NCBI GenBank assembly: GCA_045863295.1
Contig: BTWA01000032.1
Location: 8,144-72,143 of the forward strand
DNA length: 64,000 nt
Origin: Candidatus Hydrogenedentota bacterium
GTDB taxonomy: Bacteria > Hydrogenedentota > Hydrogenedentia > Hydrogenedentales > SLHB01
Direction of reading: 5' to 3'
The number at the start of each line of letters is the position of its first letter. The stretch's first letter is position 1. The position numbers and the translations under genes are program-made. This document shows, piece after piece, positions 31,548 to 43,429 of this stretch. The notes under the pieces are model-generated. The model was not told the origin of the DNA and ran no database searches. It saw only the letters and a list, made by a program, of their open reading frames with translations.

Positions 31548-32372
31548 ATGGCCAATGTTTTTCGGAGAATTCAGCGCCGCATTCTCATACGGCTTGTGCG
31601 GCTTGTCCAGAAGAGTCTGATTCGGTATCAATACGGCATGATCAGCAAATTGCCGATCAACGATAACGAACTGCTGTTCTTGAATTACGGTTATTTGGAC
31701 GGCGAAACCGGTGCGCTGACGTTGAACCCGGAGGAAGAACCGTTTCGAACATCCATTCACCTGTACCACCGCACAGCGGCCCTGGGATCCCCGCAAGACA
31801 AAGACGTGCTCGAAGTCGGTTGCGGCCGCGGCGGCGGATCGGCGCATATCATGCGCGCGTTCCAGCCGCGGAGCATGACCGCCATTGATCTCTGTGCCTC
31901 GGGCATCGACTTTTGCCGGCGGCACTTCGCATCCAGTGGCGTGCGGTATCTTACCGGTGACGCGGAGTCAATTCCGCTTCCCGACGCGGCATTTGATCTC
32001 GTGATAAACGTCGAGTCTTCCCATTGCTATCCCAAACTCGATCGTTTTCTGGCCGAAGTGCATCGGGTTCTCCGGCCCGGCGGACTCTTCTGCTATACCG
32101 ACTTTCGCGCAAGAGACCAGATGAACGGATGGCGTGCCGCGCTGGCGGCATCGGGTCTGGAGATGATCCAAGAAGAGGACATCACCGCCCCCGTCGTTGC
32201 GGCCTTGGCGAGTGATAACGAGCGCAAATTGGGGCTTATCGAAACGAAAGTTCCTTTACGAATGCGCGACTATTTTGCCAAGTTTGCGGCCATTGAAGGC
32301 GCGCCGTTGAACACGGCATTCAAAAACGGCACGGCCCAGTATTGGGTGTTCGTTATGCGCAAATCACGATAG
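31548..32372 (+). CDS. Class I SAM methyltransferase (resembles mycobacterial fatty-acid O-methyltransferases)
   Basis: FLNYGY, VLEVGCGRGGG, VINVESSHCY, RVLRPGG. Confidence 0.88.
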   Translation: MANVFRRIQRRILIRLVRLVQKSLIRYQYGMISKLPINDNELLFLNYGYLDGETGALTLNPEEEPFRTSIHLYHRTAALGSPQDKDVLEVGCGRGGGSAHIMRAFQPRSMTAIDLCASGIDFCRRHFASSGVRYLTGDAESIPLPDAAFDLVINVESSHCYPKLDRFLAEVHRVLRPGGLFCYTDFRARDQMNGWRAALAASGLEMIQEEDITAPVVAALASDNERKLGLIETKVPLRMRDYFAKFAAIEGAPLNTAFKNGTAQYWVFVMRKSR

Positions 32373-32900
32373 AGTTTCGCTTGCGAGTCGAATTTTCTCA
32401 CGTTCCGCAATCAACTCGTCGCAGGCTGACCGATTCGCAGGTTCCATGACATCGAATCCGATTAACTCCCAGCGCGGATCGTCCGGATTCAGTCCCAGGA
32501 ACTCGATATAACCGCGATCCGCAATAAAGCACTGTCCCAAAGCCGGCAACAGATAGCCGCCGGATTCCGCCAAATAGTCGCGCGCTTCGTCATGATTGCG
32601 GCACCAATTGTGCCAGTAGGCGCTGGAATTGGGCGGACTCCACAGAGTGTCCGCCGCATCCTTCAATTTCTTCCAATTGAGGTATCCGTGCTCCCGTGCA
32701 ATCACGTCAAGCGCATGTTTGTGCTGGACCAGGTGCCGTTCGCGTATGACGGCTTCGAGCGGCATTCCCTTAAACGGTTGAATGCGTTGAAACCGCATGG
32801 CCGCGGCTTCGACTTGCGCGATCGTTGCGCCGTGCAGGTCCTTGACGAGGAGTTCGGCTGCATTCTTGCATTTGTCTACGGATGGGATTGGGCGTGACAC
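32364..32900 (-). CDS. Hypothetical protein with an 'IAREHGYxxWxxLK' helical N-terminal module
   Basis: GTG start 8 nt after an AAAGGAA RBS. ALDVIAREHGYLNWKKLK motif, then WHNWC...YLLP...CFI...GLNPDDPRW. Confidence 0.75.
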   Translation of the reverse strand: MSRPIPSVDKCKNAAELLVKDLHGATIAQVEAAAMRFQRIQPFKGMPLEAVIRERHLVQHKHALDVIAREHGYLNWKKLKDAADTLWSPPNSSAYWHNWCRNHDEARDYLAESGGYLLPALGQCFIADRGYIEFLGLNPDDPRWELIGFDVMEPANRSACDELIAEREKIRLASETLS

Positions 32901-32904
32901 GGGA

Positions 32905-33056
32905 TGCGTTCCTTTGTATTGCGTGGACTTGAATCCGCTTGAGTCCACAAAGGAAGACACTTATTAAAGACTACGGGTATCGGGGAGTGGTACGACCTTT
33001 CGCGGATGAGGCGCCTCCCGGCACCTGACCTGTGAATAGTACCGCATCGTAGCCCA
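32905..33056 (-). ncRNA. Candidate multi-stem cis-regulatory RNA with an SD-sequestering hairpin, family not recognised
   Basis: Stems GGGCUACG/CGUAGUCU, GGUAC/GUACC, AGGUGCC-GGGA-GGCGCCU, and UUCCUUU-GUGGACU...AGUCCAC-AAAGGAA covering the RBS. Confidence 0.65.
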
Positions 33057-33084
33057 CACACTCAACTCAATCGTTCAAGAGGGT

Positions 33085-34551
33085 TCAGCGACGACGGGAT
33101 ATCGTTTCGTACGCGGCAAGGGCCAGTTTGCGCGCTTCAGCGTGATCGACAACGGGGGCCGGATAGGTATTGCCAAGCGCGACACCGGCAGACGCCAGCT
33201 CGATAGGGGAAGCCTCCCAAGGCTTGTGAATCAAGCCGTCGGGCAGGCTGCAAAGTTCAGGCACCCACCGGCGAACGTATTCGCCTCGGGGATCAAACTT
33301 CTCGCCCTGGCTGACCGGGTTAAACACGCGAAAGTAGGGCGCGGCATCGGCCCCGCATCCCGCCGTCCACTGCCATCCCTGCGTGTTGCTAGCCAAATCG
33401 GCGTCCACCAAGGTGTCCCAGAACCAGACAGCGCCGTCGTGCCACGATATCAGCAGATCCTTGGTCAGGAATGAGGCGACAATCATGCGCACGCGATTGT
33501 GCATCCAGCCCGTAGTCCAGAGTTCCCTCATTCCTGCGTCCACAATTGGATATCCGGTAAGGCCTCGCTGCCAGGCTTTGAGTGCGTGTTCATCTGCTTG
33601 CCACGGAAACGCGCGAAAGGCATCACGAAGAGGCTCCCTGGGCAGCGTTGGAAAGTGATACAGCAAGTGGTATGAGAATTCACGCCATCCGATTTCGGCG
33701 AGGAATTTTTGTGCCGCATCGCTCGTGTCCCGGTCGCGTTCTGCGGCCATGCGGTCATGGGTCGCATGCCATATCTGCCGAGGACTGATTTCGCCGAAAT
33801 GAAGATGGGGAGACAATCGAGACGTTCCGGGCTGACTTGGCGTATCGCGGCGCAAGCTGTAGTCACCAATGTTTTCGTCCAGAAATGTTTCCAGACGATC
33901 CATAGCAGCTACTTCGCCAAATCGCCATGCTGAAGCAATGCCCTTGGCCCACGGAATGCGCGGTTCCAGTTTCAGATTGCCGAGTGCGAGCGATCGAGGC
34001 CACGTTGAGGGCGTTCTCAAAGAATTGGGCGCGGCCAGTGGATCAGCGGGTTCCGCCGTTCCCAGACAGGTACGCCAGTACGGCGTGAATACTTGATAGG
34101 GGCGCCCTTCCTTCGTCTGAACTTCCCAGGGTTCGAACAACAAGGATGCGTTAAAGGTGCGGCAATCGATGCCCAGTTCTGTCAGACGATGTTCGACACT
34201 GCGATCGCGCGCCAATACCTGCGGCTCGTACCGCCGATTCCAGAATACCACCGTGCCCCGTGATTCGTGGGCAATCTCGCTCAAGGCAGTCGCGGCCGGA
34301 CCTTTCCGAATGATTAAACGGCTGCCACGTTTCTCCAGGGATTGACCCAGCGATTCGAGTGACTGATGCAACCAGTAACGGCTGGCTCCGCCGGGCGCCC
34401 ACGGGTATTCCTCTTCCGGACACCAGATGTAGACGGGTAAAACCGGGAGGCCGGTGCGTATGGCTGCGTCTAGTGCCGGATTATCCGCAAGTCTTAAGTC
34501 CTGCCGAAACCAAACGATAGCGGCGGCGTCTATATCCCGCTGTTTTGCCAA
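33085..34551 (-). CDS. phrB: Deoxyribodipyrimidine (CPD) photolyase
   Basis: WFRQDLRLADNPAL, TSRLSPHLHFGEIS, WREF, TGYPIVDAGMREL, MHNRVRM, PYFRVFNP. TTG start after AAGGAG. Confidence 0.95.
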   Translation of the reverse strand: MAKQRDIDAAAIVWFRQDLRLADNPALDAAIRTGLPVLPVYIWCPEEEYPWAPGGASRYWLHQSLESLGQSLEKRGSRLIIRKGPAATALSEIAHESRGTVVFWNRRYEPQVLARDRSVEHRLTELGIDCRTFNASLLFEPWEVQTKEGRPYQVFTPYWRTCLGTAEPADPLAAPNSLRTPSTWPRSLALGNLKLEPRIPWAKGIASAWRFGEVAAMDRLETFLDENIGDYSLRRDTPSQPGTSRLSPHLHFGEISPRQIWHATHDRMAAERDRDTSDAAQKFLAEIGWREFSYHLLYHFPTLPREPLRDAFRAFPWQADEHALKAWQRGLTGYPIVDAGMRELWTTGWMHNRVRMIVASFLTKDLLISWHDGAVWFWDTLVDADLASNTQGWQWTAGCGADAAPYFRVFNPVSQGEKFDPRGEYVRRWVPELCSLPDGLIHKPWEASPIELASAGVALGNTYPAPVVDHAEARKLALAAYETISRRR

Positions 34552-34953
34552 AATCACTCCTTTACCCCGATTGTATTCACGGTCAAGGACATTTCCTGTC
34601 ATGGTGCGCGTTGTCACTTTACTAACTAATTTTGCCTGTTCGTTACAATGATTGAAGCGATATCACGACTGTGTGTACGACGAATCACACTGAACGTGGT
34701 TATTACCTTGCGGAATATTGACCCATACTGTCACAATGCCAGCCAACGTATCCTTTCAAATCGGGGATTGTGGGGGTATGCGCCGAGGCAACGTGCGGAT
34801 TCTGGGTGTCATGCTCTCCATTGGCCCGGGAGTCTGCCTGAACTCGCCGGAAACAAATCGGCTAGCTTTCATCCCCGGGGGTGGACGGAAGCGGCTACTG
34901 ATAGTGTTCAGAATCTTCCGAATGCAATCACGCCGCGACGGGAACTGATCTCG

Positions 34954-42106: not shown

Positions 42107-42195
42107 TGATCGTTTGGCGTGCACGTGATTTCTGCTCAGCAAAACCGCGGGGTTTGACAATATCCTGTCCGCAATGGCACGATGAGAGCCTCATC

Positions 42196-42277
42196 GGCCT
42201 GCCGTGACTGGCGATGCAAGGTGGAACCAACCACCGGGGAGCGGCGGGTCTTGGGTTTCTTGCCGATCGCCTGGGCG
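42196..42277 (+). ncRNA. ZMP/ZTP (pfl) riboswitch
   Basis: P1 GGCCUGCCG/CGGCGGGUC, conserved GUGACUGGCG, P2 GGUGG/CCACC then GGGGAGCG, 3' GCCGAUCGCCUGGGC with a GGCG/CGCC pseudoknot. TTGACA upstream at 42154. Confidence 0.9.
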
Positions 42278-42361
42278 CTCTGAATTGAATGTGTTGCGGG
42301 GAGTGGTGCGTCCATTCTCCGCCGGCAACATGCCACGGAGTGCGGCATGGCGGAGGCCCGG

Positions 42362-43429
42362 ATGCAACAGACCCCCTTGATCGGCGAATACGAAGCGCAC
42401 GGCGGCAAGGTCGTCGATTTCCACGGTTGGGCGCTTCCTGTGCAGTTTCGCCACGGTATTGTGCAGGAACACCTTCACACTCGAACCAAGGCGTCGCTCT
42501 TCGACTGCTCCCATATGGGCGAGTTTCTCATTTCTGGTAAAGACACAATCGACGCCTACCATCGCCTGGTCATGACCGACGTGTTGGGTATTAAGCCGGG
42601 GAGGGGACGCTACGGCGCCCTGCTCAATGAGAAGGGAGGCATTGTTGACGACATCATTACTTTTCGACTTGGAGAAGATGATTTCTTTGTCGTCACCAAT
42701 GCCGGCCCTCTTGACGTGGTCGCCCCTCAAATCACTGCATGCGGACCCGGCGCCACGGATATTTCCAGCGAGACCGCAAAGATCGACATACAAGGGCCGT
42801 TAAGCCGCGAAATTCTAGTGCTCGAAATGCCTGAGGCTGCGAACCTTAAGTACTTCCAAGCGATTCGCACTCATTGGAAGGGCAGCCCCGTCGTCCTCGC
42901 CCGGACAGGGTATACCGGCGAACTCGGCTTCGAAATTTTTGTCCCTGCCGCCGTGGCCGTGCCCCTTTGGCGCGCACTTGCCGGATACGATGCCGTCGAA
43001 CCCGCGGGTCTGGGCGCACGCGACACACTACGCACCGAAGTGGTCTATTCGTTGTCCGGCCAGGACTTTAATGAGTCGCGAACACCCCTGGAGGCCGGGT
43101 TGGATGCCTATATTGCATGGGATACCGAGTTTACCGGCAAGGCCGCGCTGCAACAACAGCGCGACGCAGCGGACTACCCCGTGCTGACTCCAGTCAAGAC
43201 CGCCGACCGGCGCGCGCCACGCCATGATTTTGAGGTTACGCACAATGGTGATCGCGTTGGTGTGGTGACCAGCGGAACCTATGGACCCAGCGTTGGGTAT
43301 GGAATTGGTCTGGCGTACTTACCCCGGCATTTGGCCAAGCCCGGTACCACGCTTGTCGCCGGACCACGTGAATTACCCATTGAAACCGCCACGGCCCCGT
43401 TTTATAGACAGGGCACGTGCCGCATATAA
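42362..43429 (+). CDS. gcvT: Glycine cleavage system aminomethyltransferase
   Basis: FHGWALPVQF, LFDCSHMGEF, QGP, RTGYTGELGFE, GLGARDTLRTE, VTSGT. Confidence 0.96.
   Translation: MQQTPLIGEYEAHGGKVVDFHGWALPVQFRHGIVQEHLHTRTKASLFDCSHMGEFLISGKDTIDAYHRLVMTDVLGIKPGRGRYGALLNEKGGIVDDIITFRLGEDDFFVVTNAGPLDVVAPQITACGPGATDISSETAKIDIQGPLSREILVLEMPEAANLKYFQAIRTHWKGSPVVLARTGYTGELGFEIFVPAAVAVPLWRALAGYDAVEPAGLGARDTLRTEVVYSLSGQDFNESRTPLEAGLDAYIAWDTEFTGKAALQQQRDAADYPVLTPVKTADRRAPRHDFEVTHNGDRVGVVTSGTYGPSVGYGIGLAYLPRHLAKPGTTLVAGPRELPIETATAPFYRQGTCRI

Follow-up and report, generated by a model that had tools for sequence, protein, structure and literature searches.

The 5' leader of a gene for a 178-aa protein in the analysed window, i.e. 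a stretch of 64,000 nt from a Candidatus Hydrogenedentota contig, looks like an undescribed gene switch. The leader covers about 130 bases (33026-32898, minus strand, as are all features below), has a conserved RNA structure and is associated exclusively with genes that encode a particular N-terminal helical module. We tentatively favour a role of this leader in controlling translation initiation together with the encoded module, i.e. autoregulation, while a new riboswitch class ranks just behind and is nearly as likely.

The conserved structure starts with hairpin P1 (33009-33026), in which AGGUGCC (33026-33020) and GGCGCCU (33015-33009) enclose the loop GGGA (33019-33016), exactly as the original prediction had described it. 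The closing pair of P1 varies across the leaders (AU in 28, CG in 16, UA and UG in 4 each, GC in 1). The loop had been taken for a GNRA loop, which is not what other lineages keep: they carry GAGG, GCGAAG, GUGAGG and more, covarying with a downstream strand. The P1 loop is the 5' strand of a pseudoknot (PK1), whose partner strand lies around 30 nt downstream. Just 3' of P1 sits strand J (AUCCGC, 33002-33007), the 5' strand of a second long-range pairing (PK2); its complement, GCGGAU, is part of the loop of a distal hairpin, P3. The small hairpin P2 (GGU-CGU-ACC, 32989-32997; 3 bp and a 3-nt loop), identified by covariation, is flanked on one side by an AAA that is unpaired and near-invariant in the alignment (32998-33000) and on the other by an unpaired AC (32988-32987), followed by UCCC (32986-32983) as the 3' strand of PK1, these last two together spanning 32983-32988. 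The third pair of P2 is GC in 31 leaders, CG in 29, UA in 10 and AU in 1, while 69 leaders have A-U as the second pair; a compensatory change to G-C is seen only in the window and in L043. In PK1, five of the six pairs show both-sided changes. A hairpin formerly read from CC-GCGAAA-GG does not exist, its CC being part of the strand pairing with the distal loop and its GG part of P2.

Around 25 nt separate the 3' strand of PK1 from the long Shine-Dalgarno (SD) hairpin, and the linker in between (32956-32982) is conserved neither in sequence nor in length. Since its indels are not multiples of three, a coding leader peptide was rejected. Several other lineages have a linker strand that additionally complements the region of the start codon, and the combination of UCAC and a pyrimidine strand presumably resembles the 3' end of 16S rRNA. 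The hairpin itself is the one originally proposed, i.e. the anti-SD strand UUCCUUU (32949-32955) pairs with the SD AAAGGAA (32909-32915) and is stacked on GUGGACU/AGUCCAC (32948-32942 / 32929-32923). The latter two strands form P3 (32923-32948), whose 12-nt loop contains GCGGAU (32938-32933), the 3' strand of PK2. Compensatory changes from A-U to G-C are found in P3 of L060 and L061. The GTG start at 32900, 8 nt past the SD, also agrees with 16/16 homologues. The core of the predicted leader hiding a ribosome site stands (33026-32898, conserved, with the SD predicted to be paired), as does its division into a structured sensor-like domain and an SD-sequestering platform, while its outer architecture does not. 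The outer stem GGGCUACG/CGUAGUCU and the inner GGUAC/GUACC are neither predicted nor conserved in the alignment; the 5' halves of both fall within a promoter-like spacer and its -10 region, and the 3' half of the outer stem within the variable linker. A repeated AGGUC has no conserved counterpart.

The putative promoter consists of a -35-like hexamer read from the sequence (TTGAGT, 33060-33065) and a -10-like hexamer identified from aligned hexamers (TACTAT, 33036-33041), spaced by 18 nt. The latter is located 9 nt ahead of P1, so that transcription probably begins at P1 or shortly before it. A TAnnnT hexamer occupies the same alignment column in 12 close leaders, and in most of 68 homologous leaders a TTG-type hexamer is found at a comparable distance, a count made without a control. 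Within a search range of 3-10 nt, and likewise without a control, the best -10 hexamer ends 5-7 nt ahead of P1 in 55/68 leaders. A consensus promoter scan called no promoter at the locus because the inferred one matches at only 8/12 positions.

Covariation upstream of homologues, which the original prediction had named as a check, is strong. Among 72 distinct leaders, analysed against 500 shuffles and controls with slid partners, 92.5 % of the P1, PK1 and P2 cells were paired, compared with 80.3 % after shuffling (reached by 0/500) and 35-54 % when the partners were slid. The covariation score was 0.372 vs 0.162 in the shuffles (again reached by 0/500), with both-sided changes in 10/15 pairs. 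In most of the 74 leaders compared, the best Watson-Crick complement of strand J lay in the apical loop, 31-39 nt ahead of the start codon. PK2 is represented by eight different sequence pairs, whose partners change in step between lineages, and its helix is longer with the own than with a swapped partner (5.48 vs 4.49; reached by 0/5000 permutations). In a set of Myxococcota leaders alone, the full structure was 94.5 % paired, being too conserved for covariation, and the PK2 columns were misaligned by MAFFT. Minimum-energy folds predict at least half of the SD window to be paired in 67/68 leaders. The SD hairpin of the window alone reaches -19.1 kcal/mol (z -2.79; 1/200 shuffles as good), while the stability of the 205-nt stretch as a whole is unremarkable (z -0.42; 63/200 shuffles as stable). 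The signal of the leader is conservation rather than energy. The identity of the leader over 12 relatives amounts to 76 %, while their proteins are only about 56 % identical. Furthermore, a model built from the 12 Hydrogenedentota leaders alone was run on 70 other loci and recovered 61 matches at E<=10, 60 of which were on the strand of the gene and immediately upstream of distant homologues.

The lack of a match to a known riboswitch class, as noted originally, was borne out by comparison with the 4227 models of Rfam 15, in which a score at or above the gathering threshold of the family was taken as a match. The only match in the whole window was ZMP-ZTP at 42194-42283. For the leader itself, searched at E up to 10, only sR47 came up, on the opposite strand and with 15.9 bits vs the 40 needed. 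The leaders of L029 and L050, also at E up to 10, had Chlorobi-1 as best hit (16.1 bits vs 50). Among 20 homologous loci, only SAM-I-IV was detected, elsewhere in L035, and among 17 variant loci only a tRNA. The literature searched, which included the text of one 2026 preprint, yielded no description of the leader motif.

The pairing of RNA and protein suspected from the outset is evident in the genomic distribution. The leader RNA occurs once per genome, always immediately upstream of a member of the family of the 178-aa protein: it is present as a single copy in the genome of the window and as one strong match in each of five other genomes. Among 135 Hydrogenedentota genomes, those with the RNA and those with a strong module match are the same 14, the two features adjoining each other in 14/14, and 15 of 151 Myxococcota genomes carry both, adjoining in 15/15; two extra weak RNA matches fall within unrelated ORFs. 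Of 401 Pseudomonadota genomes sampled, 36 contained genes with the module. The RNA is conserved in Hydrogenedentota, Myxococcota, Alpha- and Gammaproteobacteria, Trueperaceae, Acidobacteriota and one Brocadiaceae genome. The neighbouring genes differ in every lineage examined, the photolyase gene of the window included, and the leader has its own promoter-like element. A link to UV or nucleic-acid damage through the upstream phrB was therefore rejected, as the neighbourhood is not conserved. Transporter or biosynthetic genes were not found near the leader, and the associated genes, all with the same uncharacterised module, offer no pointer to a metabolite or ion.

The gene itself spans 32364-32900, with a GTG start at 32900 that is backed by homologues: 16/16 begin with M-xRPIPS at this position, which favours it over the Met35 start of the public gene call (P0001; 144 aa). 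Contigs assembled from the single public RNA run span 32364-32513, inside the gene. The protein comprises the N-terminal helical module (aa 8-86 approximately; 32879-32643) and a C-terminal alpha/beta domain (aa 84-178; 32651-32367). Its N-terminal domain is basic (pI 9.5), the whole protein near neutral (pI 5.97), with a family median of 8.3. Structure models with pLDDT values of 93.7 and 92.1 gave no Foldseek match at E<=0.001, and structure searches with the whole 178-aa protein or the C-terminal domain alone did not reveal a known fold, the best structural match having a VIA-align Z of 4.5. Solved structures searched by sequence returned designed repeat proteins only (E 0.002), and the ESM Atlas just unnamed clusters and a Myxococcota GIY-YIG fusion.

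The 'IARE.G...W..LK' module, which the original prediction had placed at the N-termini of many unrelated proteins, is real. Its profile retrieved 613 cluster representatives, some of them fused to other domains, and it weakly matches the N-terminal part of Pfam Glyoxalase_8 in 5/8 homologues and the N-terminus of NCBIfam PRK05973 in 3/5. The window protein scores 15.9 bits against Pfam PF20066 Glyoxalase_8, below the cut-off of 23.7 and confined to profile positions 25-55, and homologues score 14-18 bits; five RNA-carrying genomes searched for PF20066 contain no true member. A word-index search with the module alone returned none of the longer proteins, which the full profile search did recover.

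The RNA seems to follow this N-terminal module and not the rest of the protein, judging by the gene sequences it precedes. Parsed by eye, leaders that keep the architecture of the window leader but compensate with new sequences are present upstream of two 421-aa proteins (L148 and L149) that have only the module in common with the window protein, and, likewise by eye, upstream of two paralogues in genome G023 (L153 and L155) and of a longer Myxococcota protein with a weak module match (L146). The leader also precedes Myxococcus forms fused to a GIY-YIG-like domain. A related subclass, again parsed by eye, lies upstream of 11/12 Pfam Glyoxalase_8 genes. A strict script descriptor recognized 2/12 of these leaders vs 2/120 shuffles and 3/96 other windows, and model R2 gave no match on the 12 Glyoxalase_8 loci and only 8.7-13.5 bits on L148 and L149, i.e. 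the divergent variants were missed.

According to the mechanism that we cautiously prefer, the RNA would start at P1, whose loop pairs with the pyrimidine-rich strand 30 nt downstream (PK1), and the apical loop of P3 docks onto strand J by 5-7 base pairs (PK2). One compact fold would thereby arise from the ribosome-site hairpin and the 5' pseudoknot domain, with the ribosome site closed. The N-terminal helical module may then bind this fold and stabilize the closed state, and the outcome would be negative autoregulation of translation in the style of ribosomal-protein leaders. In this scheme we infer the transcript start, the block of initiation by pairing and, above all, the protein as effector. 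The co-occurrence of RNA and module in all 14 Hydrogenedentota and all 15 Myxococcota genomes concerned, the persistence of this link across different protein architectures and the basic N-terminal domain argue for autoregulation. On the other hand, no RNA-binding fold was recognized in the protein models (best Z 4.5), the whole protein is near neutral, the variant leaders were parsed by eye, and near-invariant unpaired A residues within a double pseudoknot are a typical sign of ligand-binding aptamers. Moreover, the link between RNA and module could stem from common descent of a 5' gene segment with a swapped 3' end, which fits a riboswitch equally well.

Such a riboswitch, a possible reading in its own right, would bind a small molecule or ion in its P1/PK1/P2 domain and thereby fix the PK2 docking, with the SD hairpin being kept closed or released and the ligand related to the function of the shared module. 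The complex, covarying pseudoknotted fold, the near-invariant unpaired AAA and AC of the core family, the physical coupling of platform and sensor domain, the breadth of conservation from Hydrogenedentota to Brocadiaceae and a protein in which no known RNA-binding fold was recognized all point in this direction, as does an expression platform predicted to overlap the ribosome-binding site in 67/68 leaders and the window. Riboswitches tied to a single gene family do exist, e.g. pnuC/NAD+-II. Nevertheless, every instance examined here is tied to one protein module, and nothing points to a ligand, given that transporter and biosynthetic genes are missing nearby and the neighbourhood is not conserved. 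In addition, the variant leaders, as parsed by eye, keep the architecture while almost all of their sequence differs, leaving few invariant pocket nucleotides.

That nearly all lineages pair the SD within a stable hairpin, and that the structure begins where the transcript is inferred to start, would also suit a cis-acting element without dedicated effector, i.e. a thermosensor, a constitutive translation attenuator or an mRNA-stabilizing 5' structure. We regard this as unlikely, as a simple SD hairpin would do for such roles and known thermometers have no need of P2, the covarying PK2 or a conserved pseudoknot upstream. In ROSE and fourU thermometers, a short, weakly paired SD hairpin suffices without conserved distal structure, and -19.1 kcal/mol is a strong helix for a thermometer. 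Less probable still, and very unlikely, is a self-cleaving ribozyme or separate small RNA instead of a translational leader. Pistol ribozymes do have a hairpin whose loop pairs downstream, and the GIY-YIG-like domain of some Myxococcus homologues matches the group I intron endonuclease model TIGR01453 (E 1e-6, below the cut-off), yet no Rfam ribozyme family matches even at E up to 10, and the position of the element is always downstream of a promoter-like site and upstream of the start codon, with the SD included. Chance complementarity in an ordinary spacer downstream of a photolyase gene would agree with the unremarkable overall stability of the 205-nt region, but is refuted by the strong conservation and covariation across phyla.

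Returning to autoregulation, one might go further: the 'KHALAVIAREHGF.SW..LK' helical module may be a new RNA-binding domain recognizing the double-pseudoknot leader of its own mRNA. Promoter, leader and module would then represent a self-regulating cassette that travels as one and to which various C-terminal domains have been attached (VOC/glyoxalase-like, GIY-YIG-like nuclease, methyltransferase and several unknown ones). If the leader is indeed a switch, it would constitute an undescribed and widespread family of structured regulatory RNAs in at least six phyla, with an unusual architecture: the hairpin that hides the ribosome site is anchored through its loop, by a second long-range pairing, to a sensor pseudoknot. 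It would also provide a first handle on a common module of unknown function, present at the N-terminus of many unannotated proteins and of Pfam Glyoxalase_8. The choice would be between a new RNA-binding domain and a single unknown ligand to which all carriers of the module respond.

Among known systems, autoregulatory leaders of ribosomal proteins, such as the rpsO/S15 pseudoknot, are alike in being structured, often pseudoknotted and inclusive of the ribosome-binding site, and in occurring only before the gene of the presumed binder, with about one copy per genome. In contrast to these, the protein described here is not a known RNA-binder and matches no known fold, its binding to the leader is putative, and its RNA goes with a module that occurs in combination with several C-terminal domains. 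As regards the protein, Pfam PF20066 Glyoxalase_8 has the N-terminal helical module in common (positions 25-55), and genes of this family carry a related leader, while the window protein lacks the rest of the profile and has a different C-terminal domain. NAD+-II (pnuC motif) and similar riboswitches are likewise tied near-exclusively to one gene family and control the SD through a pseudoknot; their genes encode transporters or enzymes that point to the ligand, while the gene product here is uncharacterised. In preQ1-II riboswitches, a hairpin loop pairs with a 3' strand and a small hairpin is embedded just before that strand. The leader resembles preQ1-II (RF01054) in the order of its elements, i.e. 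5' arm of P1, loop with the pseudoknot strand, 3' arm of P1, junction, small hairpin and 3' strand of the pseudoknot, as well as in the control of translation via the SD. It differs from preQ1-II in that it does not match any Rfam model and has no ligand or queuosine-related genes, and in that the 3' strand of its pseudoknot is not the SD, which instead lies around 70 nt downstream in a separate hairpin docking back by the second long-range pairing.

The leader RNA lies at 33026-32898 on the minus strand, downstream of the photolyase gene (33085-34617, minus; Pfam DNA_photolyase and FAD_binding_7), the end of which is 184 nt from the GTG at 32900 that opens a 178-aa reading frame (to 32364, minus; sequence and homologues). 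This GTG, chosen as start in the original prediction, is borne out, since all 16 homologues of 45-60 % identity begin M-xRPIPS at the aligned position, and the 8-nt gap between the SD and the GTG was confirmed as well. Judging from the homologues and the SD spacing, both of which favour GTG 32900, the public gene call P0001 (32364-32797, minus; 144 aa, opening at Met35) is probably too short, its start being annotated too far downstream. Further upstream, the -10-like hexamer TACTAT (33041-33036, minus) occupies the position of a TAnnnT hexamer which the alignment places a few nt 5' of the first hairpin in 12 close leaders, and a TTGAGT hexamer stands 18 nt upstream of it. A promoter 5' of P1, at which the transcript would start, is putative, as the hexamer survey behind it ran without a control and a consensus promoter scan did not reach its threshold at the leader locus. 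Because these hexamers sit there, the 5' halves of the outer stems proposed originally (GGGCUACG and GGUAC) fall in a promoter-like region; they were neither conserved nor part of the RNAalifold prediction.

While the hairpin AGGUGCC-GGGA-GGCGCCU, the UUCCUUU/AAAGGAA pairing and the GUGGACU/AGUCCAC stem are present as first described, reading homologous leaders side by side gives a different overall architecture, that of a conserved leader in which two long-range pairings form. In the first of these, PK1, the P1 loop covaries with a strand 3' of a conserved UCAC (loop/strand GGGA/UCCC, GAGG/CCUC, GGGG/CCCC, GUGAGG/CCUCAC, GCGAAG/CUUCGC, UCGGGA/UCCCGA and GUCAGGA/UCCUGAC), and strand J, a near-invariant AAA and P2 (3 bp, 3-nt loop) lie in between. 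In a MAFFT alignment of 72 distinct core sequences, 92.5 % of the P1, PK1 and P2 cells were paired, versus 80.3 % in shuffles (0/500 reaching the observed value) and 35-54 % with slid partners; 133 cells were changed on both sides versus 45.5 in the control, and the covariation score was 0.372 versus 0.162 (0/500). Five of the six PK1 pairs showed changes on both sides, and the third P2 pair was GC in 31 leaders, CG in 29, UA in 10 and AU in one. Conservation and covariation upstream of homologues, the lack of which would have counted against the original prediction, were both found. The window itself deviates at two near-invariant positions (AAAGA to AAAGG and UCAC to CCAC), which jointly convert a P2 A-U pair to G-C; the same double change arose independently in the homologous locus L043. 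Of note, the P1 loop is purine-rich and SD-like in all leaders (GGGAG, GAGGG, GAAGG; 33016-33019, minus, in the window), its partner being the pyrimidine strand after (U)CAC (32983-32990, minus). Since (U)CAC and this strand appear to resemble the 3' end of 16S rRNA (UCACCUCC), loop and partner might mimic an SD/anti-SD helix.

The second pairing, PK2, joins strand J (AUCCGC, the six nt just 3' of P1; 33007-33002, minus) to its complement GCGGAU in the apical loop of the ribosome-site hairpin (32938-32933, minus); the hairpin that encloses the ribosome site thereby docks onto the 5' domain. Both sides change together between lineages (ACCCGA/UCGGGU, ACCCAC/GUGGGU, ACUCAC/GUGAGU, GUCCGA/UCGGAC, GCCCGA/UCGGGC, GCCCGG/CCGGGC and UCCGCGA/UCGCGGA), and the complement of J is always found 31-39 nt before the start codon. 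With one representative for each of 25 J classes, J matched its own downstream region over 5.48 nt versus 4.49 nt for the regions of other leaders, a difference reached by 0/5000 permutations. On its own, the ribosome-site hairpin has a folding energy of -19.1 kcal/mol, with 1/200 shuffles equally good; the whole 205-nt spacer shows no unusual fold stability (z -0.42). In 67 of the 68 distinct leaders, the minimum-energy fold of the platform left no more than half of the SD window unpaired, mean SD pairing exceeding that with the upstream part shuffled by a modest margin (0.72 versus 0.56). The anti-SD and SD sequences vary between lineages with their complementarity kept (UUCCUUUG/CAAAGGAA; GUUCCUU/GAGGGAC; CUUCUUUG/CAAAGGAG; CCUUC/GGAGG jointly with UUGUUUG/CAAACAA), and in several lineages the linker strand also complements the start codon region. 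In Myxococcota the full structure was 94.5 % paired versus 40-57 % with slid partners; these leaders gave no covariation signal, varying too little to show any.

As anticipated, the leader matched no described class: Rfam 15 gave no family there, at gathering thresholds or at E up to 10. Elsewhere in the window, Rfam places a ZMP/ZTP riboswitch (42194-42283, plus; 67 bits against a gathering threshold of 39) directly upstream of glycine-cleavage genes, i.e. gcvT (42347-43429) and a P-protein gene from 43671.

Searched at the DNA level, 41 related genomes gave matches in two other genera, beginning inside the leader at 33025, and protein-guided searches brought in 54 genomic and 27 metagenomic loci. 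Mean column identity of the 12 close leaders was 76 %, versus about 56 % for their proteins. A covariance model built only from these 12 Hydrogenedentota leaders gave 61 matches (E up to 10) against 70 other loci, 60 of them on the gene's strand and directly upstream of homologues only 30-40 % identical. By record titles, these belong to Myxococcota, Parvibaculum and other Alphaproteobacteria, Gammaproteobacteria including a Legionella species, Trueperaceae, Acidobacteriota and a Brocadiaceae genome. L005, a locus with a record titled Nitrospiraceae, hardly differs in leader and gene from the Hydrogenedentota loci L004 and L014, and its contig may be mis-binned.

The RNA is strictly tied to genes with one protein module. 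A core model detected a single copy in the genome that the window comes from and one strong match apiece in five others, each time at the homologous gene. Among 135 Hydrogenedentota genomes, 16 had RNA matches at E<=0.01, with the protein gene directly downstream in 14; the two weakest matches lay inside unrelated ORFs, and it was in precisely these 14 genomes that the module profile matched strongly, adjoining the RNA. Of 151 Myxococcota genomes 15 had the RNA, and in every one of them the gene followed directly and a module match lay at the same place. Since the neighbouring genes differ in every lineage (TPR proteins, sigma factor, symporter, P450, or, in Parvibaculum, an aminotransferase with biotin synthase), the photolyase neighbour, to which a functional link had been proposed, has no general meaning. 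In two loci (Parvibaculum, Hyphomicrobiales) a 114-aa reading frame directly follows the gene (L030:3557-3898; L071:3570-3911), overlapping its stop codon in L071; it has no Pfam match (E<=1e-5), and in that lineage the transcript may carry it as a second gene.

Variant leaders, all parsed by eye, precede other module proteins; here it was the weak module matches that proved telling. Two Hydrogenedentota genomes encode 421-aa proteins that have only the module in common with the window's protein (BLASTP E 0.005, 16 residues) and no Pfam domain outside it. Both loci show the same architecture with new compensating sequences, i.e. P1 GGUGC/GCGCC or AGGUAC/GUGCCU, J GGGCCUGC complementing loop GCAGGCCC, CUUCUUUUCA complementing UGAAAGGAAG, and AAAG with P2 GAC-NNN-GUC. 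Another genome of this phylum, G023, has at least three module paralogues (frames of 152 aa at a contig end, 446 aa and 678 aa); both loci that include upstream sequence hold a separate leader copy (L153:320-560, minus; L155:290-530, plus; the third locus is L152) of the same architecture, with PK1 GAGG/CCUC and GCAGG/CCUGC and PK2 CUCCUGC/GCAGGGG and GUCUGC/GCAGAC, so one copy per genome is not always the rule. The leader of a longer Myxococcota protein, which the module profile matched weakly, shows it too, with PK1 UCGGUC/GACCGA and PK2 GUCCGC/GCGGAC, and the divergent 189-aa homologue at L147 has a degenerate form keeping P1, PK1 and AAAG. The same leader is kept in long forms of 308-340 aa with an extra C-terminal GIY-YIG-like domain in Myxococcus and Pyxidicoccus (L024, L025, L026, L028, L033, L035, L036, L057, L065); L025 resembles TIGR01453 (E 1e-6, below cut-off), and a cluster member is named GIY-YIG nuclease family protein. 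A related subclass was read about 200 nt upstream of 11 of 12 full-length genes (L156-L167) for Glyoxalase_8, a Pfam family present in 36/401 sampled Pseudomonadota genomes. It comprises a first hairpin, J (GCUCGC, GUCCGC or GCCUGC), a hairpin, a conserved GGUGAAG and an SD hairpin, the J complement (GCGAGC, GCGGAC or GCAGGC) lying within a downstream 'GGCAAUGCGAGCUCCC'-like box. The leader search model R2 recovered 0/12 of these loci, and a strict script descriptor 2/12 versus 2/120 shuffles and 3/96 other windows. No variant locus had a leader match in Rfam.

For the 178-aa protein, Pfam gave nothing beyond one match below threshold, in which residues 54-84 align with the N-terminal part of Glyoxalase_8 (15.9 bits versus 23.7). 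In confident AlphaFold models (whole protein, pLDDT 93.7; C-terminal domain, 92.1) an N-terminal domain of helices is followed by a small alpha/beta domain, the former basic (pI 9.5) and the latter acidic (pI 4.5); Foldseek and VIA-align found no convincing fold, the best Z being 4.5 to calponin-homology domains. The module profile matched 613 cluster representatives at E<=0.001, some of them fused to Glyoxalase/VOC domains, DUF5701, methyltransferases and TPR repeats and, in some Myxococcota, to a GIY-YIG-like domain.

The fold would block initiation, and some factor would probably open or lock it. We tentatively favour autoregulation, in which the module of the encoded protein would act on its own leader, because the RNA accompanies the module in at least five protein architectures and turned up nowhere else. 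This tie could also come by inheritance of the RNA with the 5' part of the gene, and a riboswitch, given the aptamer-like fold and a protein in which no RNA-binding features were recognised, is a possible reading, almost as likely as autoregulation. Roles that need no effector are less likely than these two, and a ribozyme or small RNA still less so.

Our data indicate that the leader RNA is real, widespread and coupled to the module protein, and within a known kind, the translational control leaders; it is apparently undescribed so far, no description of the motif having been found in the literature searched. In logic it is like the ribosomal-protein leaders, and in topology like the preQ1-II riboswitch, in which the loop of a hairpin is paired to a 3' strand, with an embedded hairpin before it. 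The leader belongs to neither of these systems: Rfam gave no match for it, and its ribosome site sits in a hairpin of its own, which a second pairing ties back.
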